Positions 5,034 through 34,618 of a DNA stretch of 34,983 nt are shown piece after piece. A program made the position numbers and the translations under genes. Each line of letters opens with the position of its first letter. Position 1 is the first letter of the stretch. The DNA lies in IMG/VR virus record IMGVR_UViG_3300045988_118832, one strand, 5' to 3'. Source of the DNA: a virus (taxonomy: Duplodnaviria; Heunggongvirae; Uroviricota; Caudoviricetes). The notes beneath the pieces were generated by a model, which saw only the letters and a program-made list of their open reading frames with translations, was not told the origin of the DNA and made no database searches.

Positions 5034-6366
5034 TAATCACCATCCCGGCGGTTATGTTGTTCGGGTCACGCAGCTGCGGGTTCAGACGTTGCAGCTCTGC
5101 CGCACGGCTGTAATCACCGTACCACTGCCACGCCAGCAACAGCAGGCAACCGTCCGCCTGCACCTGTTTCTGCGTCAGCGGTGGGCGGCGTGACAGAGTC
5201 AGCAGGCCGACATCCTGCACGGATGCCGCCACGTTCTTCATGCTCTGAATGATTTCCGGGTACATCAGCCCCAGCGGTGATGCGGTTTCGGTTATCCGTT
5301 CGCGTTCGCCTTCATAGCGTTCACGGAACAGCGTGATGGCTGCCTGTAAGCGGGTGCGCACATCCCCGACCAGTCGCCCGATATCCGCCGGTATAAGCTG
5401 CTCTGACTGGGCCTCATCTGACAGTATCGCCGTCGCCACGCTGGCCAGCTCTGAGGCTGCCAGAACCGCATAAGCCGCTTTCACGTCGTGCACGTCTTCC
5501 ACGGACGCATCCGGCGGAAGTGCCACAGACGGCGTTTTATCACCGCTGACCAGTGCGACCGGCAGCGCGACCAGCTCATCCATATCTGCCATCACCTCAT
5601 TCCAGCAGGTCATCACTGTCGCAGAACTGGCGACGTTGTCTTCCCCGGTCAGTCCGGTCGTGGTGGCGGAATCACTACGCGCCAGAACCGGCACCGCGTG
5701 CCCGACATCTGACGTGTGGATTTCCAGCACCTCTGCCAGCCCGCCGATAAACTTTCCGGGTTCGCTGGTCAGTGACACAACATTTTCGACTGTGGAGAAT
5801 GAATCACTTTTGAACGTCAGCAGGGTATTTACCAGCGTGGCACGCACTGCCTGGATTTTTTTAATCACGCTGTTAATGGTCTTTAAAGGGGGCGTAACAG
5901 CGTCAAAAAATTCGCTTAACTGTGCCAGTAACTTATCCAGTTCTTCAAATAACTGCTGTGCAAACAGCTCTGGTAACGGGGTGCAGAACAACGCGCTGCC
6001 GGTACGGCTCTCCAGAAAGCTCATGTCGATGATGCAGCTGTCCGGGCTTTCTGCGTCATGGCGAATGCTGTAGCCGGTCACAATCACCGACGGTACGGAG
6101 CCGTAAACCGGGTGAATCAGCTCACCATCGCCGCCTTCGTCCAGGGCAGCGATCAGCTTTTCAAGTTTATATTCGTAATACTCCCCCCACAGGAACGCCG
6201 TCATGCGGAACGGTCGCGCCTTGCGTCCGAGGTCGTGCAAATCTGCCCCGTCAACAAACGGGTATTCATAGACCGCATGGTCGCGGCTGATTTGTTCATC
6301 CGTGTTCAGTACATCAAACTGCACGCCACGAAAGGAGGCGTTTTGCAGGTTTTCAGCCCAGCCCAT
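5017..6366 (-). CDS. DNA circulation protein (Mu N / gp43-like)
   Basis: 449 aa ORF immediately after the tape measure gene, as in Mu. Confidence 0.7.
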   Translation of the reverse strand: MGWAENLQNASFRGVQFDVLNTDEQISRDHAVYEYPFVDGADLHDLGRKARPFRMTAFLWGEYYEYKLEKLIAALDEGGDGELIHPVYGSVPSVIVTGYSIRHDAESPDSCIIDMSFLESRTGSALFCTPLPELFAQQLFEELDKLLAQLSEFFDAVTPPLKTINSVIKKIQAVRATLVNTLLTFKSDSFSTVENVVSLTSEPGKFIGGLAEVLEIHTSDVGHAVPVLARSDSATTTGLTGEDNVASSATVMTCWNEVMADMDELVALPVALVSGDKTPSVALPPDASVEDVHDVKAAYAVLAASELASVATAILSDEAQSEQLIPADIGRLVGDVRTRLQAAITLFRERYEGERERITETASPLGLMYPEIIQSMKNVAASVQDVGLLTLSRRPPLTQKQVQADGCLLLLAWQWYGDYSRAAELQRLNPQLRDPNNITAGMVINAYAK

Positions 6367-22964: not shown

Positions 22965-23100
22965 GAGTTTCTCCTGTAAATCTGAGCCACTGACGGCCCG
23001 TAAATAACACCCTGTCAAAGGCACAGAAGCCTTTTGCAGGGCGCTATCCCTTAAGGTGCCTTGTGGTCTGAGTGGACAGGGTAAACGGTCTGGTGTGGTG

Positions 23101-23128
23101 GGTACTGCTGGGGGTGTTCAGCACCCCC
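23101..23128 (-). promoter_or_regulatory. Dyad element GGGGGTG-TTCAG-CACCCCC, lysis block copy
   Basis: Perfect 7-bp inverted repeat around TTCAG, about 150 nt upstream of the first lysis gene, downstream of the terminator after the Mor/C-like gene. Confidence 0.5.
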
Positions 23129-23151
23129 GGCAGGTTGATTATCTGGATGGG

Positions 23152-23439
23152 TTAAAGGGAAGCGAGTTTTAATGGTGGCTTATAACATGCCCGCGCCAGC
23201 AGGTTAGCTCTTTCCACGGCATTACGCATTTCCCGTTCTGCGTCAATCATTCTGTTTACGGCTGACAGCACTTCATCATGATTCGTTACTGATTCCGGGC
23301 TTTGGGCCTGTTTCGCCAGGTAACTGGATAAATTGCACATTTCAGCATGTCGGCGACGGGCTGCATCCCGGGCCTTGTCTGAAAATGCGGTATATTCACC
23401 GAGTACTGCATAGTCGATATCGGTGTCAGAACGCATCAT
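23152..23439 (-). CDS. Hypothetical protein (95 aa)
   Basis: AGGAGA upstream of ATG; lies between the terminator after the Mor/C-like gene and the lysis-block dyad element. Confidence 0.4.
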   Translation of the reverse strand: MMRSDTDIDYAVLGEYTAFSDKARDAARRRHAEMCNLSSYLAKQAQSPESVTNHDEVLSAVNRMIDAEREMRNAVERANLLARACYKPPLKLASL

Positions 23440-23466
23440 TTCGTGTCTCCTTTTTTCTGAGGCCCA

Positions 23467-23934
23467 TTAATCAAAAAGCCCCACCTGGGTGGGGCTTTTC
23501 AGCGAAGTCTGTTTTTGTCGTCGGTGTATCAGCTGCCATGCGTACCGGTCTGAAATCCCGTAGCGGGGACAGAGCAGTGCCAGCGCCTGCCGGTGTGAGC
23601 ATCCGTCTTTTACATGCTGCTGTAAATCAGCCATAAAACGGGTGTTACGCAGGGCACGTAACGCATGATCACAACGGGGAATGTAAAACGGTGCACCGCC
23701 AAGAAAGCGGATCAGTTTGTTGATTTCGTCTTCGGTCAGCACATCATGTAACAGGGCATGGACACCGCCGGTGCGTCCGGCGTGTGCGCCGGTTTTACCG
23801 CTTAACGTCACGCCACCAAAAGAACGGATTAACCGGGTCAGGGCGGGGAAGCCAATCACGCTAATCAGTTGCTGTACGGAATCGGGCAGCAGTGCCTGCG
23901 CATCGCGAAGATCTGTTTCACTGAAGGTCTGCAT
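23467..23934 (-). CDS. Mor/C-family transcriptional activator of middle/late genes
   Basis: 155 aa; region LIRFLGGAPFYIPR ... RYGISDRYAWQLI matches the Mu Mor GG-x3-YIPR motif and C-terminal HTH. Preceded by a TATAAT about 36 nt upstream of the ATG. Confidence 0.8.
   Translation of the reverse strand: MQTFSETDLRDAQALLPDSVQQLISVIGFPALTRLIRSFGGVTLSGKTGAHAGRTGGVHALLHDVLTEDEINKLIRFLGGAPFYIPRCDHALRALRNTRFMADLQQHVKDGCSHRQALALLCPRYGISDRYAWQLIHRRQKQTSLKSPTQVGLFD
23473..23500. terminator. Bidirectional intrinsic terminator after the Mor/C-like gene
   Basis: AAAAA-AGCCCCACC-TG-GGTGGGGCT-TTTT: 9-bp GC-rich stem flanked by A- and T-runs. Confidence 0.65.
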
Positions 23935-23996
23935 GATGGCGTCTCCGGTAGTAACTTACTGTTATTATAGCCATACATGATCGCCTGTACAGACCA

Positions 23997-24023
23997 CAAA
24001 AAAGCCCCTGCAAGGCAGGGGCT
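23997..24023 (-). terminator. Intrinsic terminator ending the early operon after the GemA-like gene
   Basis: Minus strand reads AGCCCCTGC-CTT-GCAGGGGCT followed by TTTTTTGTGG; starts 7 nt after the GemA-like stop. Confidence 0.65.
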
Positions 24024-24029
24024 GATTCT

Positions 24030-24443
24030 TTATTGTTTACGTGCTGCTCTGGCTCGTTTTCTGGCGTCTTTTGTCAGCGCCACCATCACCCCGAACAGCT
24101 GATCATCTGTCAGCCATTCGATCACATGTTGCTTATACATGTGAGATGCCAGTCCTTCCGCATACGCCCAGGAACGACCGGCATCAGCCAGCAACGCCTC
24201 AATTTTGGATAATACCGATTTTCTGCTCATTGCAACACGGGGGCGGCGACCTTTACCGGCGGGCGCTTTGCGCGGAAATCCCTGTTCGTGCATGTATTCC
24301 CGGATGATGCGCAGTTCATCGAGATTGCAGCGTGTGGTGCTGGTTTTACCGGTCAGGCGGGCCAGCGTCTGACGATAAAGGGCATCATCCCACCCCAGAT
24401 ACGCCTGACCGGCTTTAATGGCTCCGATCATCTTTTTCAGCAT
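24030..24443 (-). CDS. GemA-like protein (Mu gp16 family)
   Basis: ATG at 24443 with GAGGA upstream; MLKKMIGAIKAGQAYLGWDDALYRQTLARLTGK... resembles the GemA/DUF1018 N-terminus as I recall it; followed by a terminator. Confidence 0.65.
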   Translation of the reverse strand: MLKKMIGAIKAGQAYLGWDDALYRQTLARLTGKTSTTRCNLDELRIIREYMHEQGFPRKAPAGKGRRPRVAMSRKSVLSKIEALLADAGRSWAYAEGLASHMYKQHVIEWLTDDQLFGVMVALTKDARKRARAARKQ

Positions 24444-24693
24444 GTTTGTTATCCTCAAAACGCACGGTAAAACGTGAAACACCAATCCCCGACAGGAACG
24501 CGGCGGCACGGTCAAGAGACAGCCACGTCTTGTAATCGCCACGGCGTTCCTGTAGAAAATAGGACACCCCGGCGCGGCGATTCACAGCGAAGAGGTGATA
24601 CACACCATCGAACCGCTGCACGACGAACTCATCCACGCCACCGCTTTCAGCCTGCTGCCGGAAGGCTGCCATTCCGATTTGTTCAATTTTCAT
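24415..24693 (-). CDS. Hypothetical early protein (93 aa)
   Basis: ATG at 24693 (MKIEQIGMAAF...); a perfect 10-bp inverted repeat lies immediately upstream. Confidence 0.4.
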   Translation of the reverse strand: MKIEQIGMAAFRQQAESGGVDEFVVQRFDGVYHLFAVNRRAGVSYFLQERRGDYKTWLSLDRAAAFLSGIGVSRFTVRFEDNKHAEKDDRSH

Positions 24694-24696
24694 AAT

Positions 24697-24741
24697 GACC
24701 AAAACATTACTTTTGGCAGACCAAAACACATGTTTTGGTCT
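24697..24741. promoter_or_regulatory. Operator-like site: perfect 10-bp inverted repeat AGACCAAAAC-ACAT-GTTTTGGTCT plus a third half-site
   Basis: Palindrome at 24718-24741; extra GACCAAAAC at 24697-24705 overlaps the start region of the 93-aa gene. Confidence 0.45.
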
Positions 24742-24847
24742 GCATTTGATTACCATTTAAACAACTCGCGAAATCAGGAACGTCGAGTTACGGTGATGGC
24801 TTTCATCGTGTTGTTGCTCCGTGATTCAGAAAATTCCATATCAAGCC

Positions 24848-25258
24848 TCAGTATGTGAAATAGACAGTTGCCACGCCGTTATAGTGATCAAACGACACGG
24901 CGTTTACCTCATAACTGGCCGGGAGCTTCGAGCCAAGAACGTATCCGGGCCACGTTTTCCATGGAATTTCTCTGCGCTCACTATCGCCATATACCGTACA
25001 TCCCAGTGAGCCTACAGCTTCATTAGAACGCGTGCCGCACGTTATAAATCCCAGATTTTGCTTACTGCTCTTAATGGTGATTGGGTGAACGCTGGCTGAT
25101 GCATTAGCAGCACGCTGTGCCTGTTGGTTTGCGATATTCGCAGAGTTCGCAGCAGCTACAGCAGCCGTAGTCGCGGCGGTAGAGGCTACAATAGCTGCTG
25201 AAGCATGCACTTGTTGGGTAATTGTCAGCAATGCCGCCACAAAAACCATTTTCTTCAC
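24848..25258 (-). CDS. Secreted protein with signal peptide; candidate moron
   Basis: GTG start with AAGGAGG 6 nt upstream; MKKMVFVAALLTITQQVHA signal-like N-terminus, Ala-rich linker, Cys-containing C-terminal domain. Confidence 0.55.
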   Translation of the reverse strand: MKKMVFVAALLTITQQVHASAAIVASTAATTAAVAAANSANIANQQAQRAANASASVHPITIKSSKQNLGFITCGTRSNEAVGSLGCTVYGDSERREIPWKTWPGYVLGSKLPASYEVNAVSFDHYNGVATVYFTY

Positions 25259-25270
25259 CTGGCACCTCCT

Positions 25271-25450
25271 TTACATACCGTGATTTTTCCAGCGGTTTTG
25301 GGCTGCGCTTCTGTTTCGCCAGACACCGTAAAAACGAATAGAGGACCACTCCCTAAAACCAAGATATCTATAGCGAACAACAAGCCGATTTGAGATACGG
25401 ATAAGCTGTCCGGGTTTTGCTATCAGCAGTCTTGCTTTACGGTTTTTCAT
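25271..25450 (-). CDS. Small basic protein (59 aa), hypothetical
   Basis: Not in the ORF track (<60 aa). ATG at 25450 with AGGAG 9 nt upstream; stop abuts the SD of the secreted-protein gene. Confidence 0.35.
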   Translation of the reverse strand: MKNRKARLLIAKPGQLIRISNRLVVRYRYLGFREWSSIRFYGVWRNRSAAQNRWKNHGM

Positions 25451-25454
25451 CGTT

Positions 25455-25643
25455 TCATTCTCCTGTATTTACCACTGACTCTGCACTGTCAGCCCTGCGG
25501 CGCGCCTGAAGTTCCAGCATTGCGGCCCGGAAATCCTGCCACCATACCTCATCGGCAACGGGGGTGTTCCGATCCAGCACCTTGTCCGCATCGGCAATCA
25601 GTCTGGCCAGGCTCTTATCGCTTATTCTGGTTTGCTGGTTCAC
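25455..25643 (-). CDS. Hypothetical protein (62 aa)
   Basis: Overlapping stop/start with the upstream ORF. Confidence 0.35.
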   Translation of the reverse strand: MNQQTRISDKSLARLIADADKVLDRNTPVADEVWWQDFRAAMLELQARRRADSAESVVNTGE

Positions 25644-25864
25644 TGCGCCGCCTCCTGTTTTGCCACTTTAAACGCCCGTAACATCGGGACCCTCTTACCG
25701 TAGATGACGGTTCTCATTAAAAGGCCTCCATCACTCTTATGGTGCACTTCAGGGGCCACAAACAGCGCCGCATCCACAACCCGACAATAGCGACGGAACT
25801 CCCAGAACCAGCAGGAAATAGTGATAACTGCGGTACCATTGTGTTCATAAAATTCAATATTCAT
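25640..25864 (-). CDS. Hypothetical protein (74 aa)
   Basis: Overlapping stop/start with neighbours. Confidence 0.35.
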   Translation of the reverse strand: MNIEFYEHNGTAVITISCWFWEFRRYCRVVDAALFVAPEVHHKSDGGLLMRTVIYGKRVPMLRAFKVAKQEAAQ

Positions 25865-26088
25865 TTGCAGTTAAACCTCCTTTTATGGCGTTCTACGGCG
25901 GCTTTCATGGCGTTGTGCACGGTTCTTTTAATAATCCGGCGTCCCGCACTGTCATAGAACCGCCACCGGGAAGCCCCCGGATATCCGGGGAACTCAACCG
26001 CTGCGCTACCGTCATCCATCCTGTATTCGTGGCGTTCTCCGGGCGGCTGGTATATTGCTTCGGTAACACTGAGAAGTTTAAAAGCCAT
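25861..26088 (-). CDS. Hypothetical protein (75 aa)
   Basis: Starts 3 nt after the upstream gene. Confidence 0.35.
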   Translation of the reverse strand: MAFKLLSVTEAIYQPPGERHEYRMDDGSAAVEFPGYPGASRWRFYDSAGRRIIKRTVHNAMKAAVERHKRRFNCK

Positions 26089-26090
26089 CG

Positions 26091-26801
26091 TTACACCCTC
26101 CCCAGTGCCAGCGTTTTGTTGCTCTGACCATTAACCCCCTGATGCAGTCTGGCGTTTTTCCCGGCGATAAAACCGGCTGTAGCGGCAGACTCTGCACCCC
26201 GGCACGCTTTAGCGGTGCGCATATCCCCGTCGCGCAGTCCCTTGGTGCTGTGCAGGTTCTTTCTGTAAAGCTCAAGGCGGCTTTTTTCTTCCGGGGAGAC
26301 GTCATACACCGCAATGACATCACGGGCACCAAAGACCCAGCCTTCGCAGAACTGGTCGCCACGGGCCACCCGCGTGGACGGGCCGCAACGTTTGCAGTGT
26401 TTATCCTGATATTTCTTGCGCTCTGCCATCATCTGACGGGAAAGCACATCAAACGCGTAGGCCGCGATTTCCGGGCGGCTGTCAGGACCATAAAAACGAA
26501 CGTAACGTTTGAGTGAACCAGAAGCCCGGTATTCGCCGGAGATGTAACACTCGACACCGAAGGCTTTACAGACCAGGTCACACAGGATGTGCATATAACG
26601 CGGCGGTGTACTGGCATCACTCGGCGCGCCCGCGCTGGCAGCGTCCTGAATGTCGAACAATTCCGCGTCGTTTTCGCTGATACCATGCTGGCGCATATAA
26701 GCCTGGGCTTTTGCAATAGCGTTAGCGGCTTCTTCCGGGCTTGATGTCCCTCTTGCAAGGCGTAACAGCTTTTTAATTTTGGCGATGTATTTATTTTTCA
26801 T
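26091..26801 (-). CDS. DUF2786-like protein with Cys-rich C-terminal region
   Basis: 236 aa; MKNKYIAKIKKLLRLARGTSSPEEAANAIAKAQAYM... matches the DUF2786 pattern as I recall it; C-terminal HCKRCGP...FCEGW suggests a metal-binding module. Confidence 0.55.
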   Translation of the reverse strand: MKNKYIAKIKKLLRLARGTSSPEEAANAIAKAQAYMRQHGISENDAELFDIQDAASAGAPSDASTPPRYMHILCDLVCKAFGVECYISGEYRASGSLKRYVRFYGPDSRPEIAAYAFDVLSRQMMAERKKYQDKHCKRCGPSTRVARGDQFCEGWVFGARDVIAVYDVSPEEKSRLELYRKNLHSTKGLRDGDMRTAKACRGAESAATAGFIAGKNARLHQGVNGQSNKTLALGRV

Positions 26802-26814
26802 GGTCGTCTGAACC

Positions 26815-26997
26815 TCAGCATCCTGAATTCTGAATTACGCAACTTCCGGCACGGCCTTCAGGAACGTGGGGAGTTCGTTCTGGCTGCGGTACTGAATGAG
26901 CATCTGCTGTCGATTGAGAACTGGTCGCAAGACGATTAAAACAAACGATTGTCAGATTAATTTCGCGGGCGAACTTTTTTTGCTTTGCGATATTCAT
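26815..26997 (-). CDS. Hypothetical small protein (60 aa), low confidence
   Basis: ATG preceded by GGAGAG and the repeated hairpin unit; composition unconvincing. Confidence 0.25.
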   Translation of the reverse strand: MNIAKQKKFAREINLTIVCFNRLATSSQSTADAHSVPQPERTPHVPEGRAGSCVIQNSGC

Positions 26998-27072
26998 AAA
27001 TAAACTCTCCCTGACTCAGGCGTAAGCCAGCCCCGGCGGGTTTACGCCATATACAAATAAAATTAAAAACAG
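26995..27072 (-). repeat. Hairpin-plus-RBS repeat unit, copy A
   Basis: Minus strand TGTTTTTAAT...GGCGTAAACCCGCCGGGGCTGGCTTACGCC...GGAGAG..ATG; about 65 bp shared with copy B. Confidence 0.5.
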
Positions 27073-27077
27073 ACTTA

Positions 27078-27629
27078 TTAACTACGACGTTCAGTTTTCC
27101 GGTAATGACGGTCAACAGATTTAACGAACGCCTTCACATCACGGGAAATCGAATCCAGCGGATAATATTCATCCAGTAGTTCCATTCCACTGAATCGAAT
27201 CTGAAAAAAATCAGGCTTATCTTTATATGACTCCATCAGGTCAATAAACCGCAACTGACGCGGGAGGGATTCCTGCACGCCTGAAATAGTGAGCAAATCA
27301 TCTTCAAGGATGTATGCGAGGTCTTCCATATCCTTACAGTCAGACAGCATGGTTATTCTTGTCAGTATGTTCCGTGTGGCGATATACAGCGCTGCTGTGT
27401 CATTCGCCATCATGGCGAACAAATCCCCCTGAATATACGCCCCGCTACTGGCCACAGCATTCCCGGCAATCTGGGCATCAAGCACCACATCCATAAAATT
27501 ACCCGGTGCTCCCAGACAGCCCAGCAAGGATGACGCCCATAACGTTACATTGGTTAACTTCTCAGATGAACGGGTGGCAAAACCTTCAGGAGTAACAATA
27601 AAATCCCAGACTTTATCTTTCATATACAA
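27078..27629 (-). CDS. Hypothetical protein (183 aa), low-GC cargo gene
   Basis: ATG with AAGAGGA upstream; by-eye GC on sampled lines is about 40-45%, clearly below the structural genes; bracketed by two copies of a ~65-bp hairpin-containing repeat. Confidence 0.5.
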   Translation of the reverse strand: MYMKDKVWDFIVTPEGFATRSSEKLTNVTLWASSLLGCLGAPGNFMDVVLDAQIAGNAVASSGAYIQGDLFAMMANDTAALYIATRNILTRITMLSDCKDMEDLAYILEDDLLTISGVQESLPRQLRFIDLMESYKDKPDFFQIRFSGMELLDEYYPLDSISRDVKAFVKSVDRHYRKTERRS

Positions 27630-29012: not shown

Positions 29013-29252
29013 TCATTGCCATACGACGGTACAGCCGTCGATACAGGACGTTTTAACCACGCGGCGCAGGCCGCTGAATGTCTGAACGATTTCCGTTACC
29101 GGCCATACAGGACCACCCACAGGCGGGCAGGCATAAACCACAGGTAAACGGTGATGCTGCCCCGTTACGCGACCGCCAGTGGTATGGATAGCCACACGGG
29201 CACGGGAACGGACGGCATTAATGGCCTGCTTTTCCATCATTTTGTTCTCCAT
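29013..29252 (-). CDS. Hypothetical early protein (79 aa)
   Basis: ATG overlaps the stop of the MuB-like gene (TGATG-type coupling). Confidence 0.4.
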   Translation of the reverse strand: MENKMMEKQAINAVRSRARVAIHTTGGRVTGQHHRLPVVYACPPVGGPVWPVTEIVQTFSGLRRVVKTSCIDGCTVVWQ

Positions 29253-30145
29253 CAGTGAATTAACATTTCTGCGAATTTATCTATGGCCTGCACACTGACC
29301 GGCGCATCGCTGATATCGCAAATCCGGTACACACCGCGCGCCAGTTTGAACAGGCGGCGGGCATTACCCAGCGAGCGCGCGTAAAGCGCCTCGCTGATTT
29401 CCGGTTCTGCTGCTTCCGGCATCAGCCCGGTGGCTATCTGGTTAAAATCTTCCTGCGCCAGCGTGTCGCCCAGGTTAAGCGCCAGCGCCACGCGGCTGTA
29501 TAACTGCGCAAATTCACCACGACGCCCCTTGAGATTAATCAGAAGACGAGGCATACCCGCCAGGACAACCCCGATACCAGCTTTATCATGCAGACGGCGC
29601 AGAACCTCCAGTGCGCGATAGGGGAGCAGTTCAGCTTCGTCCACCATCAGCAGACGACCGGAATCACGCAGTTCGCGCACACAGGCATCAATCAGTTCGT
29701 GAATGTTGCCGCGAACCTTTACCCCCAGCTGGCGGCACAACTCCTCAAGCAGTGTCCTGGCTGTATAGCCCGGGTCAGCCTCAATCAGGACCGCATCCCG
29801 GTTTCTGGCGGCGTATTCACGCAGAATCATTGTTTTGCCAAGGCCAGCTGCGCCATACAGCACACAGATTTCACATTCCAGGTGAGCGTAGGCCAGCACC
29901 TCCAGTCCTTTGGCAGCCATACCAGTGGTCACAAACTTTGCTTTAATACGGCGGCTGTTTTCCTTTTCCCGCTCACGGGTCACAAAGGCAGAAATGCGTT
30001 CTTCAATATCAGCCATATCGCCCTGATATTTACCCTGCAAATACTGGTTGATAACGGCGCTGCTACGACCAATTGCACGGGCGACGTGGGTCTGCGTATA
30101 GCCGCGACGGGCCATTACGTCATTTAATTGCGTAATTAAACTCAT
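29252..30145 (-). CDS. MuB-like transposition ATPase / target DNA activator
   Basis: 297 aa; N-terminal HTH-like region then Walker A-like LYGAAGLGKT and Walker B-like LLMVDEAE; directly downstream of the transposase. Confidence 0.85.
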   Translation of the reverse strand: MSLITQLNDVMARRGYTQTHVARAIGRSSAVINQYLQGKYQGDMADIEERISAFVTREREKENSRRIKAKFVTTGMAAKGLEVLAYAHLECEICVLYGAAGLGKTMILREYAARNRDAVLIEADPGYTARTLLEELCRQLGVKVRGNIHELIDACVRELRDSGRLLMVDEAELLPYRALEVLRRLHDKAGIGVVLAGMPRLLINLKGRRGEFAQLYSRVALALNLGDTLAQEDFNQIATGLMPEAAEPEISEALYARSLGNARRLFKLARGVYRICDISDAPVSVQAIDKFAEMLIH

Positions 30146-30163: not shown

Positions 30164-32206
30164 TTAACGGTTGTTTGTGCCGTTTTTCTTTAAATTGCGC
30201 TCGCGTTCAGATGCGAATAAATAAAGTTCTTCTTTTTCCTTTTTCTCCGGGCGCTCCAGACCAAATCCAAAATTAAACTCAGATTTCTGCGTAATAGCCG
30301 GGGTAAGCTCGCGTTTCGCCTCTTCGATTTTCTGCGTGGCCCGTGCAATGCGGCCTCTGGCGCGTTTCTCCTGCTGCTGTTCGATAACAGCTTTCGGGAA
30401 CGCATCAACCTTATTACCGTTCCAGATGGCATCGCAGATATAAGAACCGTCCATCCGCCTGACAATCACGCTGTTTGCGTCGTGAATGTCGTAACAAACC
30501 CTGACTTCATTTCCGTGCTCTGCTGCCAGTTCTGTTGAGAAATAGATGTTTCTGAATAACACCACTTCACCGCGTCGCACCGTGCAGATGCTTTCCGGTC
30601 GGAACATTTCATGCAGTTCTTCCGGCGACAGCATGTCGATTTCAGCTTTCTGCTCCTTTATCAGTTTCCGGCGATACGCTGCCGGGCTGTAATGTTCACC
30701 ATCCTCTTTGCGGGGAAGGCTGCTGTGTGGCCGGTTGTTATACCGTTTCACCTCCAGCTCTATTGCGGCCATCAGTTGCTCAAAGGTGGGAACTTCTCCC
30801 ATAGCCTGAACCTGCCGCTTTGTCAGCTCTTTCCCTTTGTGGGTGGCCTTAATTGCTGACTGTGTGATGCGTTGCTGCATCATCACCGTTTCCTTGTCTG
30901 CATTTTTTGAGCAGTACGTCTGGAAACTCAGAGCCACATCTTTGGGTATTCCTTTGTTTGCTCGTTCTATTACCCCGCGCCCCTGCGGGTTACCAGGTAT
31001 CCCCGTGTGATGCTCCACACCCAGTCGGGGCAGAATCCCGGTAATATCGGCATCAAGTACCTGGTTTTTTTCACCACCCCCGTTATCGGAGTAATAAATC
31101 AGCGGTATCCCGTGTTGTGACATGCCATGACGCAATGCATCAGCAACGGCCACTACGTTCTCCGACAGGGACAGCGACCAGCCCACAATAAAGCGTTGCC
31201 CTGCATCCATAACCAGTGTCACTTCTGGCCGGAATGTATTCCCGGTGGCAGGGCTGAATGCCATCAGTTTCATACAGTGACCATCCCCGACCCATACCGC
31301 ATTAACCGGTAATGTGCTCCAGTCGCGCCGCACAAAGGGATTGAGCGAACGCCAGGCTGAACCGGTGGAGCGGAAACGCTCTTTAACAATCACCGGGACG
31401 CTGCTTAACACCCGTCTTACTGCGTGAACTGAAGGCAGTGCCGCCAGGATTCCCGCATCGTTCGCGTGTTTTTCATGCCACCAGGCTGAAAACTCGCGAT
31501 ACGCATATTCAATGGTCGGGCGCTTCCATGAGCGATAGAACATAAAGAAATCGCTCAACCACCAGACCTGCTCCCACGGTGTTCCCTTATGATGACCGGG
31601 AGCCAGTAACGCCAGTAACTGATTGGCATCACCGCGCGCCATCAGCCAGGTGGAATACCATTCCTGTAAACATCCCCAGCTGACGCCAGTTCGCTTACCC
31701 TGTCTGGCGTTGGCAGTACCTGCGGCCTCGATAATACGCTCGGGCAATGCCATCTGACGAATACCATCAACGATGTGTTTTACTGCTGCCGTCCTGGACA
31801 TTCCGGCGTATTCACGCAGTTTATGCACTTCGGTAGCCAGCAATATCCGCGCATCAGCGATGGCCTTTTGCTTGTCGGTCAGTGCCTGAACTTCGCGTAA
31901 TGCCAGCTCCGGGCATTTGACCATCACTTCCAGTTCATCGCGAACGGCGACGTTTTTAACTGCCTTCTGCTCAACCACGGCGGGCAGTTGTGCATCTTCC
32001 AGGACCTGATGAGTCAGGCGCTTACGTAAAACTTTCTGCGCTTCAGCGGGTAGGCAGTCGATGTGATACTCGAATGCTTTGGTACCTTCACGCTTGCGCC
32101 TTAATTCAGGTTTATTTTCAATTACACGATCTAGACGCGCCCTGACATTGTGTTCACGTGTTGGTAGCCCTCCAATGCCAGCACACTCTTTTGCTGTAAT
32201 CCACAT
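30164..32206 (-). CDS. MuA-like DDE transposase
   Basis: 680 aa; N-terminus MWITAKECAGIGGLPT... parallels Mu A (M.W...KECA..GLP); position after the ner-like gene. Confidence 0.9.
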   Translation of the reverse strand: MWITAKECAGIGGLPTREHNVRARLDRVIENKPELRRKREGTKAFEYHIDCLPAEAQKVLRKRLTHQVLEDAQLPAVVEQKAVKNVAVRDELEVMVKCPELALREVQALTDKQKAIADARILLATEVHKLREYAGMSRTAAVKHIVDGIRQMALPERIIEAAGTANARQGKRTGVSWGCLQEWYSTWLMARGDANQLLALLAPGHHKGTPWEQVWWLSDFFMFYRSWKRPTIEYAYREFSAWWHEKHANDAGILAALPSVHAVRRVLSSVPVIVKERFRSTGSAWRSLNPFVRRDWSTLPVNAVWVGDGHCMKLMAFSPATGNTFRPEVTLVMDAGQRFIVGWSLSLSENVVAVADALRHGMSQHGIPLIYYSDNGGGEKNQVLDADITGILPRLGVEHHTGIPGNPQGRGVIERANKGIPKDVALSFQTYCSKNADKETVMMQQRITQSAIKATHKGKELTKRQVQAMGEVPTFEQLMAAIELEVKRYNNRPHSSLPRKEDGEHYSPAAYRRKLIKEQKAEIDMLSPEELHEMFRPESICTVRRGEVVLFRNIYFSTELAAEHGNEVRVCYDIHDANSVIVRRMDGSYICDAIWNGNKVDAFPKAVIEQQQEKRARGRIARATQKIEEAKRELTPAITQKSEFNFGFGLERPEKKEKEELYLFASERERNLKKNGTNNR

Positions 32207-32214
32207 AACACCAC

Positions 32215-32487
32215 CTATGCAGCGTTGCTATGCGGATTTTTATTCCGATAACGTGATGGCCAGATAACTTCCGGTTCCACACCAATCGCTTCTGCAATTG
32301 CTGATTCATATGCAGGTACGCGGCGATAAAACACGTTACGCATTGCTCCAGGTTTTAAGCCGCGTACACGCTCCATCGTAGTGATATCAACCCCTTTATT
32401 ATCAAGGGCGGCTGCAATTGCTTTGCTAGACCAGTCTTGTCCGCGACGAACAAACAAGTCAGTTAGATCTTGTCTCGATAACTGCAT
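32215..32487 (-). CDS. Ner-like DNA-binding protein
   Basis: 90 aa; C-terminal EPEVIWPSRY matches Mu Ner/Nlp (KPEVIWPSRY). GGAGAGGA upstream of the ATG. Confidence 0.8.
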   Translation of the reverse strand: MQLSRQDLTDLFVRRGQDWSSKAIAAALDNKGVDITTMERVRGLKPGAMRNVFYRRVPAYESAIAEAIGVEPEVIWPSRYRNKNPHSNAA

Positions 32488-32505
32488 TGTGTGATCCTCT
32501 CCAAT

Positions 32506-32611
32506 TTATCGATTCAGATAATCAAAAGCATTTATCTGATGCGATAAATCCTAGATAAACAAAAATCCGCTGTCAACGGATTTTTGTATTTGTTTAAGCG
32601 GATTTTTGTAC
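32506..32611. promoter_or_regulatory. Immunity-region operator cluster between the repressor and ner-like genes
   Basis: TTATC-N6-GATAA (32506-32521), ATTTATC-N6-GATAAAT (32530-32549), AAAAATCCG-N7-CGGATTTTT (32561-32585), extra GCGGATTTTTGTA (32599-32611). Confidence 0.5.
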
Positions 32612-32625
32612 ATCGTGGGTTCTAT

Positions 32626-33303
32626 ATGAAAAACTCTTTAAAAAGAAATGGTTACGCAGATAAAACCGCAAGCAAGCAAACCGAGAAAGAACGGATTATT
32701 GAGGCTATGGATATAATCCGCTTCGGTGAGCGCCTTAAATCAGCTATGGAAGACAGCGGATTAAATTACATGGCACTGTCAAAACTGAGTGGGTTGTCTG
32801 AAGCCACAATACGAAAATACGTGCATGGAAAGATCTATCCAGGTATAGACAGCGCAGCTTTGGTGGCTCACGCATGCAATGTTCCTGTGGAGTGGTTGAT
32901 ATCAGGAAAATCCGTCATTGAAAACAATAATCCGCAACAAAGTCCGACCGAAAGAACAGAATTAAACCTCCTGTTACAGCGCATGAATACTCAAGATTTA
33001 GATGCTTTGCTTGATGTTTTTTACAACATCGGTATCAAAGGAGTCCTAAAACGCCTACAACAACCCACCAGGCAAGCTAAGCAGGCCTGCAACGACCTAG
33101 ACGAACAGGAGAATGCCATCAGAAGCCTGAACATCAGGGAATCGCTTAAAGACGCTATGTGTATGGCTCTGGATGGAAATGAAGAAACTGACAAAGAGAT
33201 TTTGCGACGCATCGAATCTCGTGCACGGACTGGGTCGCCAGGTGGTGAGACCATTGCCACGCCGGAGCAAGAAACGAAACCTGTAAGCAAAAAACCAGCA
33301 TGA
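32626..33303 (+). CDS. Prophage repressor, HTH XRE/cI-type
   Basis: Divergent from the ner-like gene. ORF track starts at a TTG (32584); ATG at 32626 preferred. HTH-like LNYMALSKLSGLSEATIRKYVHG. Confidence 0.7.
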   Translation: MKNSLKRNGYADKTASKQTEKERIIEAMDIIRFGERLKSAMEDSGLNYMALSKLSGLSEATIRKYVHGKIYPGIDSAALVAHACNVPVEWLISGKSVIENNNPQQSPTERTELNLLLQRMNTQDLDALLDVFYNIGIKGVLKRLQQPTRQAKQACNDLDEQENAIRSLNIRESLKDAMCMALDGNEETDKEILRRIESRARTGSPGGETIATPEQETKPVSKKPA

Positions 33304-33454: not shown

Positions 33455-33596
33455 TCAAAACAGTCCAGAATAAAGCGTAAAAAAAGGCATTTTTGGTCAT
33501 TTTCTTCAAAACGATCCAGAATCGGCGAAATCTCTCACATCCCGCACCACTCAAGGCTCGCAGGCTCATCTGGTCTGCTCGTACTCAGTCCAGAAT
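33455..33596. repeat. Three direct copies of ATTCTGGA (minus-strand sense): candidate transposase end-binding sites
   Basis: TCCAGAAT at 33464-33471, 33515-33522, 33589-33596; two copies share ATTCTGGAyyGTTTTGA. Located after the repressor gene where Mu has L1-L3. Confidence 0.4.
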
Positions 33597-34618
33597 TGAT
33601 CACTACCCCACATAATGCCTGACAAAACACAACCAGAAGGTGCTCGAAACGTCCAGCTGTGCTCGTTCCCGCCCGGGTTGTAAAACACCTCACTGGTATA
33701 CTGAAAATTCTGTACGCCACCTGTTTTGGTCTGGTAGCGGGCATCGAAGTTTCCGTAGTCTGACGGTATAACCTGACGCCCGCATCGCCAGTTTCCCGCA
33801 TCATCCATATACGCCTGACCGTCCGTACCATTATCCGTACGGCTATTATTTATCATGTAAATGCCAAACTGCTTATTCCCAAGACCAGCCAGGAAATACT
33901 TTCTGTCTGCATGATCCTGACGCAGAAGCGCCTGAGCAGCATCAGTATTTATCCTGTTTTTCCCGAAAATAACGTTGTTGTCACGCATCTGAATCCACGT
34001 TCCGTTACTGCTGTTAATCGCAAAACGGCCTGCAAATACATCTTCTGTAACATCCAGACCGTGTCCCATAGTTATGCGACCGGTCCTGAGATTAAGCGTA
34101 AAGGGGCGTAGCGGCCCAATATCACCACTCTCGCCCTGATTTTCCCGGGTAGGAATGAGGTGCAGACACTCTTCCGAACGACGAAAAATCAGACCAAAGG
34201 CTTCGTTGAAAATCCTCAGTGCATTAACACCACGGATTTTCAGCTCCCCGGTCATGGTGTCTCCATCACGCTGAACGGCATTTTTTGCCTTATCCACCGT
34301 GGGTTTTAATCCGAGGTTTTCAACAGCCTCATCACTGTCTTCGACATCCGAAAGATTATTTTTTATCAGCAATGCCTCTTCGTTAATTGCACCGCCCACC
34401 AGTAATAATATGGCTTTATATAACTGGTCGTGTTCCTCTTTATTCAGTTCTATCCCGGCCTTCTCAATGACACCACAGATTTCCTCCTGAAGGGCATCCC
34501 ACATGGCACTGTTCAGCCAGGTGGCATGACGCCCTGTACGAATATTCCCGTCAGTAAATCCGTTCTTGCCCGGGCCAAATTTATCTTTAACTGCTGTCGG
34601 AGTGTCAATTCTGTGCAT
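33566..34618 (-). CDS. Tail fibre protein (350 aa), outside or at the edge of the Mu-like element
   Basis: ATG with GGGAGG upstream; N-terminus MHRIDTPTAVKDKFGPGKNGFTDGN... and GDTMTGEL motif are typical of fibres; C-terminal YTSEVFYNPGGNEHSWTFRAPSG matches the left-edge fibre. Confidence 0.7.
   Translation of the reverse strand: MHRIDTPTAVKDKFGPGKNGFTDGNIRTGRHATWLNSAMWDALQEEICGVIEKAGIELNKEEHDQLYKAILLLVGGAINEEALLIKNNLSDVEDSDEAVENLGLKPTVDKAKNAVQRDGDTMTGELKIRGVNALRIFNEAFGLIFRRSEECLHLIPTRENQGESGDIGPLRPFTLNLRTGRITMGHGLDVTEDVFAGRFAINSSNGTWIQMRDNNVIFGKNRINTDAAQALLRQDHADRKYFLAGLGNKQFGIYMINNSRTDNGTDGQAYMDDAGNWRCGRQVIPSDYGNFDARYQTKTGGVQNFQYTSEVFYNPGGNEHSWTFRAPSGCVLSGIMWGSDQFWTEYEQTR

Follow-up and report, generated by a model that had tools for sequence, protein, structure and literature searches.

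Several small proteins that phages export to modify the envelope of their host are well described. P1 Sim and T4 Sp are small, periplasm-facing superinfection-exclusion proteins with an N-terminal export signal, encoded by non-essential accessory genes, and Cor (phi80, N15, T1), Llp (T5) and the Bor protein of lambda are exported lipoproteins that alter the envelope, through receptor block or serum resistance. In lambdoid phages, extra genes may take the form of morons, i.e., genes flanked by their own promoter and terminator. Moreover, the variable early region of Mu-like Pseudomonas phages holds non-essential genes, some of which exclude other phages; an example is reported for phage Fc02 (PMC9936078). 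Here, we analyse a stretch of 34,983 nucleotides (nt) from a tailed virus of the Caudoviricetes (IMG/VR record IMGVR_UViG_3300045988_118832; hereafter the window, at its full length), in which a gene for a protein of 136 amino acids (aa) and an inverted repeat lie near each other among the early genes of a Mu-like prophage. The original prediction had joined the two into a single system, in which the prophage would express a factor for lysogenic conversion or superinfection exclusion, with a palindrome and its third half-site as the dedicated operator. Our results separate them: the whole explanation that we regard as probable combines a mobile gene for an exported envelope protein of the lytic phase with a distinct dyad element belonging to the neighbouring module made of a 92-aa gene and gemA.

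The 136-aa open reading frame (ORF) is a genuine gene under purifying selection. The ratio of nonsynonymous to synonymous substitution rates (dN/dS) is 0.38 against the homologue of phage Av-05 (0.28 over the C-terminal domain alone) and 0.10 against a plasmid copy, the GTG start and the ribosome-binding site are kept in three contexts, and the protein matches the family phrog_8805 (labelled “unknown function”) over its full length (E=7.4e-87; residues 1–136 against profile positions 1–136 of 136). In addition, PGAP calls the same coding sequence in a 99.9% identical copy of the prophage, found in E. coli O166:H15 JNE21-009. The reading frame and the strong Shine-Dalgarno sequence announced by the original prediction are therefore confirmed (Table 1), as is the conservation without which the ORF would have been dismissed. 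The ribosome-binding site AAGGAGGT directly abuts the TAA stop codon (25271–25273) of a 59-aa ORF upstream.

This gene is a horizontally mobile accessory gene inserted in the variable early region of the Mu-like prophage, with the transposition genes on one side and gemA on the other, and the Mu-type early neighbours found around it bear out its earlier description as lying among cytoplasmic early genes. Pairwise mapping of the junctions delimits a cassette reduced to the ribosome-binding site and the ORF. Compared with an E. coli plasmid of ~95 kb, positions 25272–24844 are 94.6% identical at the nucleotide level and the shared segment ends there, while the virulent Vequintavirinae phage Av-05 shares positions 25271–24829, with 80.6% nucleotide and 72% aa identity. 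In Mu-like backbones lacking the cassette, homology on the upstream side stops at 25280 (locus L003) and resumes on the downstream side at 24760 (L005–L007), so that an 83-bp 3' flank is missing along with the cassette. Within this flank, a 21-codon ORF on the minus strand (24773–24838; MEFSESRSNNTMKAITVTRRS) is possibly the remnant of another cargo gene. On the other side, the 173-bp piece 25280–25452, which contains the 59-aa ORF (phrog_1380), is also present in phage HEMP4 and, at 90–92% identity, in many E. coli chromosomes without any annotated feature.

Of 5426 complete E. coli genomes, 64 have the 136-aa ORF, which occupies 47 places on chromosomes and 19 on plasmids. It also occurs in 34 plasmids of PLSDB, all of them non-mobilizable, those listed with a full-length copy measuring 85–102 kb. 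On plasmids, it overlaps the upstream gene by 4 nt, and the one carrier plasmid that was inspected has a Ref-family (P1-type) nuclease nearby. In siphoviruses of 45 kb from E. coli and Klebsiella, a homologue with ~50% identity comes right after a cytosine methylase gene. Altogether, the carriers comprise Mu-like prophages, phage-like plasmids of ~85–108 kb, the virulent phage Av-05 and the 45-kb siphoviruses, and since the neighbours of the gene differ in every context, there is no conserved partner gene. Its presence or absence among close relatives, its sharp boundaries and its sharing with unrelated phages make it a moron in the loose sense of the word. Like the morons of lambdoid phages, it is a single extra gene with precise boundaries, absent from close relatives and common to unrelated phages; unlike them, it has neither promoter nor terminator predicted around it, the cassette being limited to a ribosome-binding site and an ORF, which makes its expression dependent on the host operon.

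Predictions over 23000–27200 returned a single promoter-like site, at mor, and none near 25259–25400, and no terminator on the sense strand was predicted near the end of the 136-aa ORF (after 24848). The ORF is oriented as the early genes are. In phage Mu, the early promoter drives a gene so placed once the prophage is induced, but not in the lysogen; by analogy, the 136-aa gene would be read with the early operon after induction or infection. Two considerations weigh against this reading of its expression: the analogy is with Mu, yet the repressor here is of the HTH_3 type and not Mu c, and read-through or weak internal promoters are possible for this gene. The lysogenic conversion put forward by the original prediction nonetheless appears unlikely for a cassette of ribosome-binding site and ORF that lacks a predicted promoter or terminator, follows the orientation of the early operon and is also carried by a virulent phage.

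Regarding the product, the layout that had been noticed at first sight (a signal-peptide-like N-terminus, an Ala-rich linker and a C-terminal domain with two Cys) was seen again, and its signal-peptide part is shared by 18 of 18 aligned family members. The check for export was rule-based (charged start, hydrophobic core of 7–15 residues, small residues at -3/-1, cleavage site at about 16–25), and the 136-aa protein shows every one of these sequence features of Sec export and signal peptidase I. Its N-terminus, MKKMVFVAALLTITQQVHA followed by SAA, is made of MKK, an 11-residue hydrophobic core (MVFVAALLTIT) and QQVHA ahead of the first S, with V-H-A at -3/-1. In all 18 members, a charged start is followed by a hydrophobic core and then by a small-x-small site within residues 16–24, a layout that persists in members with 35–50% overall identity. 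Furthermore, the signal peptide of the homologue from Klebsiella phage KLB16 was annotated independently by the authors of that genome, and some members are named “Prophage exported protein” in UniRef. On these grounds, namely a signal-peptide layout conserved in 18 diverse members while the spacer that follows it varies or is missing, two invariant Cys, the KLB16 annotation and the UniRef name, we infer that the protein is exported through the Sec pathway and cut at residue 19. As its first Cys is residue 74, it has no lipobox, and the pattern L-[AS]-[GA]-C was found in none of the 18 family members.

The conserved core of the family corresponds to the C-terminal ~75 residues, with C74 and C87 invariant and the motif GF[IV]TCG...GSLGC...IP[WY]..[WFL]PGY.LG..[LIV]P.SY.V.A[IV]S[FY]D.YN.[VI]AT[VI]YF.Y. 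With a shallow alignment, the AlphaFold2 model was unusable (predicted local distance difference test, pLDDT, of 47); the model was thus taken from a deeper alignment that includes more distant members, for which the mean pLDDT rises to 74. In this structure prediction, a check proposed by the original prediction, the C-terminal part is modelled with confidence (pLDDT 84–94) as strands 69–74, 80–82, 86–89 and 97–99, a helix at 103–111, then strands 117–124 and 129–135. Upstream of it, a single long helix runs without interruption over residues 16–53 (pLDDT about 50–70). The Ala/Thr/Gln-rich segment is variable in the family and missing in its most distant members; its Kyte-Doolittle mean over 19 residues reaches 1.5–1.9, and one family member has a weak Alanine_zipper hit in this region.

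Export, cleavage and disulfide formation are nevertheless predictions, and the borderline hydrophobicity of the Ala-rich segment makes a membrane-anchored or signal-anchor-release-like topology possible. A distinctly unlikely reading takes this further: the protein would be tethered to the membrane by an uncleaved or releasable Ala/Thr-rich anchor and would act in lysis timing or envelope remodelling, as does the antiholin RI of phage T4 among tethered proteins of this kind. Such a role would suit the second moderately hydrophobic Ala/Ser/Thr-rich stretch of the E. coli subfamily (Kyte-Doolittle up to 1.9), the continuous helix of the AlphaFold2 model and the presence of the gene in virulent phages, where lysis timing matters, but the distant members lack the stretch while keeping both the signal peptide and the C-terminal domain, the gene never adjoins lysis genes in the contexts examined, and no similarity to known holin or antiholin families was detected in Pfam or PHROGs.

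Searches with the 136-aa sequence returned no family in Pfam, NCBIfam or PADLOC and no sequence match in the PDB, and no fold relative of the C-terminal domain was detected in the PDB or BFVD. An exhaustive HMMER scan of 1.84 billion representatives yielded only ~9 clusters of true relatives at 50% identity (the long repetitive proteins P0063–P0074 from the same scan were rejected as compositional noise). A profile search collected 106 clusters, all of stand-alone proteins, 109–137 aa long where full length and without fusions, whose named sources are all Enterobacterales or their phages and among which no name was more informative than “prophage exported protein”.

In the mechanism that we propose for the 136-aa protein, the early operon would be transcribed on induction or infection and the gene efficiently translated from its strong ribosome-binding site; the product would then be exported by Sec, cut after VHA19 and oxidized to form a C74–C87 disulfide. 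The mature form would be a periplasmic protein of 117 residues, with an N-terminal Ala-rich helix, which may drive oligomerisation, and a compact alpha/beta domain. As the carriers are not known to share a receptor and no partner gene is conserved, it would most likely act alone during lytic growth, on a general component of the envelope of Enterobacterales. A role at that stage in superinfection exclusion, or in some other envelope function, is possible, and our leading guess, a tentative one, is that the protein blocks the entry of secondary phages or otherwise shields the envelope of the infected cell. Against this role, it must be said that no homology, fold match or conserved neighbour indicates a target, the proposal being drawn from location and distribution.

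The comparison with described systems is instructive in this respect. As with P1 Sim and T4 Sp, the protein is small, phage-encoded and endowed with an N-terminal export signal, and P1-type plasmids are among its carriers; the family nonetheless has a layout of its own (Ala-rich helix followed by a 75-aa domain with two Cys), and no homology to these proteins was detected. With Cor, Llp and Bor, it has in common its predicted status as an exported phage accessory protein, whereas those proteins have a lipobox Cys and the 136-aa family a signal-peptidase-I site with no Cys before residue 74. Blocking the receptor of the carrier phage itself is unlikely as a common role, because the carriers include phages not known to share a receptor. 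The likeness to exclusion genes of the Fc02 type in Mu-like Pseudomonas phages is one of position, since the 136-aa gene also sits in the variable early region.

The inverted repeat lies beyond the 3' end of the gene, the insertion point of the 136-aa ORF being ~20 bp upstream of the dyad element. On the window strand, it reads GCAGACCAAAACA-ca-TGTTTTGGTCTGC, with arms at 24716–24728 and 24731–24743, and it is the longest perfect inverted repeat of the window; none of 100 dinucleotide-preserving shuffles contained a perfect 13-nt inverted repeat with a spacer of at most 6 nt. The palindrome of the original prediction is thus real and nonrandom, but its arms are of 13 nt instead of 10 bp, and it begins 104 nt past the stop codon of the 136-aa ORF rather than immediately downstream. 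Three exact copies of GTTTTGGTC are present in the window. The third, at 24697–24705, is the additional half-site that had been described as overlapping the start of the next gene; it exists, yet it ends 3 nt short of the ATG (24693). With a fourth half-site (CCAAAAG, 24710–24716), the element resolves into two tandem 22-bp dyad units, i.e., CCAAAA-N6-TTTTGG twice. In the sense of the downstream gene, the whole reads GC-AGACCAAAAC-atgt-GTTTTGGTCT-GCCAAAAG-taat-GTTTTGGTC-att-ATG, which forms an A/T-rich island of 33% G+C.

The element was present in all the relatives examined, most of which lack the 136-aa gene. In every E. coli-lineage locus with the 92-aa gene, CCAAAA-N6-TTTTGG occurs exactly twice, as units 22 bp apart at -45..-6. 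The element is present in E2348/69, RM9088, TUM9812 and RSHH22, all lacking the 136-aa gene, and absent from Av-05, the plasmids and the siphoviruses, all of which have it. Among 37 loci encoding the 92-aa gene or a relative, 11 also encode the 136-aa gene; in four of these 11, ~430–570 bp separate the end of the 136-aa ORF from the ATG of the 92-aa gene, an interval with room for another gene; the remaining seven have 154 bp, as does the window. The backbone formed by the 92-aa gene and the element was found in 58 complete E. coli genomes, with the ORF adjoining in ~28 of them. The site therefore occurs without the gene, the gene occurs without the site, and the site lies 3' of the gene, which is not what a dedicated operator of the 136-aa gene would look like; being kept with and without the ORF, the element is a feature of the conserved 92-aa/gemA module, for which it probably serves as a cis-regulatory element.

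This leaves the unified model of the original prediction hardly tenable. It is right in that the protein looks exported, that the gene is an accessory gene of a temperate phage and that the palindrome is not a product of chance, but the palindrome stands on the wrong side of the gene, is conserved with the next gene in prophages devoid of the ORF and is missing from every non-Mu context of the ORF, while the cassette has no predicted promoter and the gene is found in a virulent phage as well.

As for the 92-aa protein (phrog_7844), it has no match in Pfam at E<=10 nor in the PDB, its only resemblance being a weak, full-length hit to the partition-associated ParC family of NCBIfam (ParC-like, E=0.0016) that falls well short of the cut-off for that family. 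No isolated phage has the gene, and scans of genomes and metagenomes gave only close relatives. In a Leminorella grimontii prophage (L062, 1762–2576), a 76-aa gene and an HNH endonuclease gene lie between the 92-aa gene and gemA, which shows that the overlap of the two genes seen in E. coli is not universal. Frameshifted 92-aa genes, one of them fused into the gemA reading frame, were observed in E. coli (P0083 and P0086) and indicate what look like decaying copies of the module in some genomes.

How the dyads might act was examined from several angles. That they act mainly as a messenger RNA structure over the ribosome-binding region is a serious possibility, if short of probable. In the E. 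coli lineage, the 78-nt sense-strand leader has a predicted folding energy of -20 to -24 kcal/mol (z = -3.2 to -4.4), with two near-isoenergetic folds in which segment 1 pairs with segment 2, or segment 1 with segment 4 so as to enclose a 2:3 helix. The 3' arm ends 3–4 nt from the AUG, over a ribosome-binding position that lacks a good Shine-Dalgarno sequence. In helix 1, three of the ten pairs are changed on both sides, from few lineages only, and three single changes yield G-U pairs on the sense strand. The lack of a predicted promoter nearby also fits a role at the RNA level. Other observations count against an RNA structure. The divergent relatives L027, L062, L063 and L008 have no common helix, their folds being no better than shuffled sequences (z = -1.1 to +0.2), even though half-site sequence and spacing persist in them at 55–76% protein identity; both right-hand half-sites carry the same change each time (GGTC/GGTC, GGTG/GGTG, GGCT/GGCT); and the same dyad, in one or two copies, is found in an unrelated lambdoid prophage, 110–155 nt upstream of a Fic/Doc module.

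Persistent half-sites, concerted changes and lambdoid copies speak for sequence-specific binding rather than a simple hairpin, and we tentatively entertain a tandem protein-binding site as the function of the dyads. In its more specific form, which seems somewhat unlikely, the dyads would be DNA operators for a dimeric protein, either a host factor or a self-regulating 92-aa protein, bound at two sites two helical turns apart, and the predicted RNA folding would be incidental to the palindromic sequence. Such operators would account for half-sites that are invariant while spacers vary freely among the distinct variants collected, for a 22-bp spacing that is exact in every locus, for right half-sites that change together in divergent lineages while the inverted partners show no compensating change, and for the same half-sites occurring with wholly different spacers, as one unit or two, in a lambdoid intergenic region far from a start codon; the ParC-like resemblance of the 92-aa protein points the same way. 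On the other hand, neither context has a predicted sigma-70-like promoter at the element or close to it, and searches with the 92-aa protein detected no DNA-binding domain. Elsewhere in the prophage, the site does not recur as it might in a regulon. The window also has no protein in common with the flanks fetched for the lambdoid loci, which makes it more likely that any binding factor is encoded by the host or outside those flanks.

The lambdoid copies lie in a nin-like region (between the replication-region genes and Q), upstream of a small ORF and a Fic/Doc toxin gene, and two units in L035 (5939–5984) correspond to one in E. coli SMN013SH2 (L066, ~2605–2630), the difference being an exact 22-bp indel. 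By eye, these dyads stand between a terminator-like hairpin and the small-ORF/Fic-Doc module; the complete junction piece was found in only 6 of the 5426 genomes. The remaining weight we leave to a recombination-linker or neutral origin of the dyads. The strong version of it, a scar or linker without regulatory role, in which a palindromic unit prone to tandem duplication sits at a boundary of cargo exchange, is very unlikely. In both contexts, the element does lie at an exact mosaic boundary (variable cargo vs. the conserved 92-aa/gemA module in Mu-like prophages, terminator piece vs. toxin–antitoxin module in lambdoid ones), and copy number differs by exactly one 22-bp unit; yet the half-sites almost never vary among the E. 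coli-lineage loci whose adjacent region (24415–24760, mostly the 92-aa gene) is 90–99% identical, and their geometry relative to the ATG is kept at 55–76% protein identity, which indicates selection on the sequence itself.

Known classes of elements were compared with the dyads and set aside. An intrinsic terminator was rejected, as the hairpin was flagged on the + (antisense) strand only, with a weak T-run, the sense strand continuing with CAAAAGTAAT, in a region of 33% G+C. A search with the covariance models of Rfam 15 found nothing at the element, the only hit in 23900–25500 being a chance match to a microRNA model (E=0.15). The Mor/C sites of phage Mu consist of inverted 5-bp repeats around a G/C-rich spacer of 6 bp, with their centre at -43.5 relative to a start site that has a -10 hexamer (PMC4390567). 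The dyads, with arms of 5–6 bp placed 6 bp apart in a phage that encodes a Mor-family protein, are like them in geometry; in contrast to Mor/C sites, their spacers are A/T-rich and the element is upstream of mor itself. A site of this type was rejected for the A/T-rich spacers and because a correctly spaced -10-like hexamer exists only as CATTAT, which overlaps the ATG and would place the start of transcription inside the gene. We also discarded an IHF site (no match to WATCAANNNNTTR) and the repressor/Ner operators, as the repeats at 32488–32620 differ in sequence. In hix/gix sites, an A-tract lies next to the central CC/GG; the dyad element has the opposite polarity, and a serine-invertase site of this consensus was rejected. 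Finally, the centre of the dyad, TTGGY-NN-RCCAA, bears what we take to be a likeness to operators of the GntR family (ExuR/UxuR/PdhR type).

In IMG/VR, the single-unit pattern was matched 14 times beyond the two contexts already described, on unrelated contigs, which is about the number of a rough chance estimate. A match to a relaxed tandem pattern in the viral contig L065 was discarded as an unrelated iteron array in a low-G+C replicon: its positions 5910–6130 contain four 22-bp iterons (GCAACCAAAAAGTGGGGTTTGG) and degenerate copies, upstream of a gene for a putative replication initiator of 442 aa. A broader proposal embraces both subjects of this study: the 136-aa family would be a new fold family of periplasmic effectors, exchanged among virulent and temperate phages of Enterobacterales and disabling or masking a common envelope function, e.g., as a broad-range block against the entry of competitors, and the dyad would be a portable, copy-number-variable binding site through which a host or phage factor gates the gemA module. 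We consider this combination unlikely.

The surrounding genes were identified through Pfam domain hits, which reveal a Mu-like transposable prophage on the minus strand of the window, with transposase A, a MuB-like ATPase, a Ner-like protein, GemA and Mor, all in Mu order (Table 1), followed beyond mor by holins and an M15 endolysin. In the JNE21-009 copy, PGAP calls the same genes, and all those around the 136-aa ORF are named “hypothetical”. The same early region includes a gene that PGAP assigns to the ANR family (AraC negative regulator; window ~27252–27485, L002 5853–6086), another accessory gene that could influence the regulation of host virulence. Directly after gemA, a strong intrinsic terminator is visible on the minus strand (24003–24023; AGCCCCTGC-ctt-GCAGGGGCT then T6), and the sole sigma-70-like promoter of 23000–27200 (TGTACA-16-TATAAT; 23964–23991, minus strand) lies just before mor, so that mor may be a separate transcription unit, unlike in phage Mu. 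At the 3' end of mor (23474–23499), a perfect 12-bp inverted repeat (AAAAGCCCCACC/GGTGGGGCTTTT), flanked on each side by A/T runs, has the look of a bidirectional terminator. A candidate left end of the prophage was located near ~33543 (...GAAATCTCTCACA). Next to it, a 350-aa ORF on the minus strand (33566–34618) resembles phage tail-fibre DNA, best that of phiP27 (90.7%) and less closely those of Rac-SA53 and P88; accordingly, the Mu-like element seems to lie beside or inside the tail-fibre region of another prophage.

Table 1. Positions of the cassette, the dyad element and the neighbouring prophage genes in the window.
Feature	Position	Strand	Basis or remark
136-aa gene, GTG start, TGA stop	24848..25258	-	phrog_8805; small exported protein (predicted)
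Shine-Dalgarno sequence AAGGAGGT	25264..25271	-	AGGAGG core ends 6 nt before GTG; direct sequence reading
Signal peptide, residues 1-19 (MKKMVFVAALLTITQQVHA)	25202..25258	-	signal-peptidase-I cleavage predicted after VHA
Ala/Thr/Gln-rich segment, residues 20-57	25088..25201	-	predicted helical, moderately hydrophobic
Conserved C-terminal domain, residues 58-136	24851..25087	-	small alpha/beta domain (predicted), invariant C74 and C87
Mobile cassette, ribosome-binding site and ORF only	24844..25272	-	pairwise junction mapping
Segment missing from cassette-less Mu-like backbones	24761..25279	-	cassette and 83-bp 3' flank (24761-24843)
Dyad unit 1, perfect 13-nt arms	24716..24743	.	GCAGACCAAAACA-tg-TGTTTTGGTCTGC on sense strand
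Dyad unit 2	24697..24717	.	GCCAAAAG-taat-GTTTTGGTC on sense strand; 22-bp direct repeat of unit 1
92-aa gene	24415..24693	-	phrog_7844; leader carries dyad element; 29-nt overlap with gemA
gemA (gp16 family)	24030-24443	-	PF06252, E=1.7e-18; partner downstream of 92-aa gene
mor (Mor family)	23467-23934	-	Pfam
DUF2786/DUF7168 gene	26091-26801	-	Pfam
DUF3164 gene	early region		Pfam
MuB-like AAA ATPase (AAA_22)	29252-30145	-	Pfam
Mu-type transposase A (Mu-transpos_C, HTH_Tnp_Mu_1, rve)	30164-32206	-	Pfam
Ner-like HTH_35 protein	32215-32487	-	Pfam
HTH_3 repressor, divergent	32584-33303	+	Pfam

Neither the 136-aa gene nor the dyad element overturns current ideas. The dyad element adds a small, well-defined cis-element ahead of the poorly understood gemA module of Mu-type phages. 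If the proposed action on the envelope is true, it would give a function to a gene present in ~1% of complete E. coli genomes and in at least four phage lifestyles, and the 136-aa protein would provide a compact tool for studies of phage–phage exclusion or envelope manipulation.

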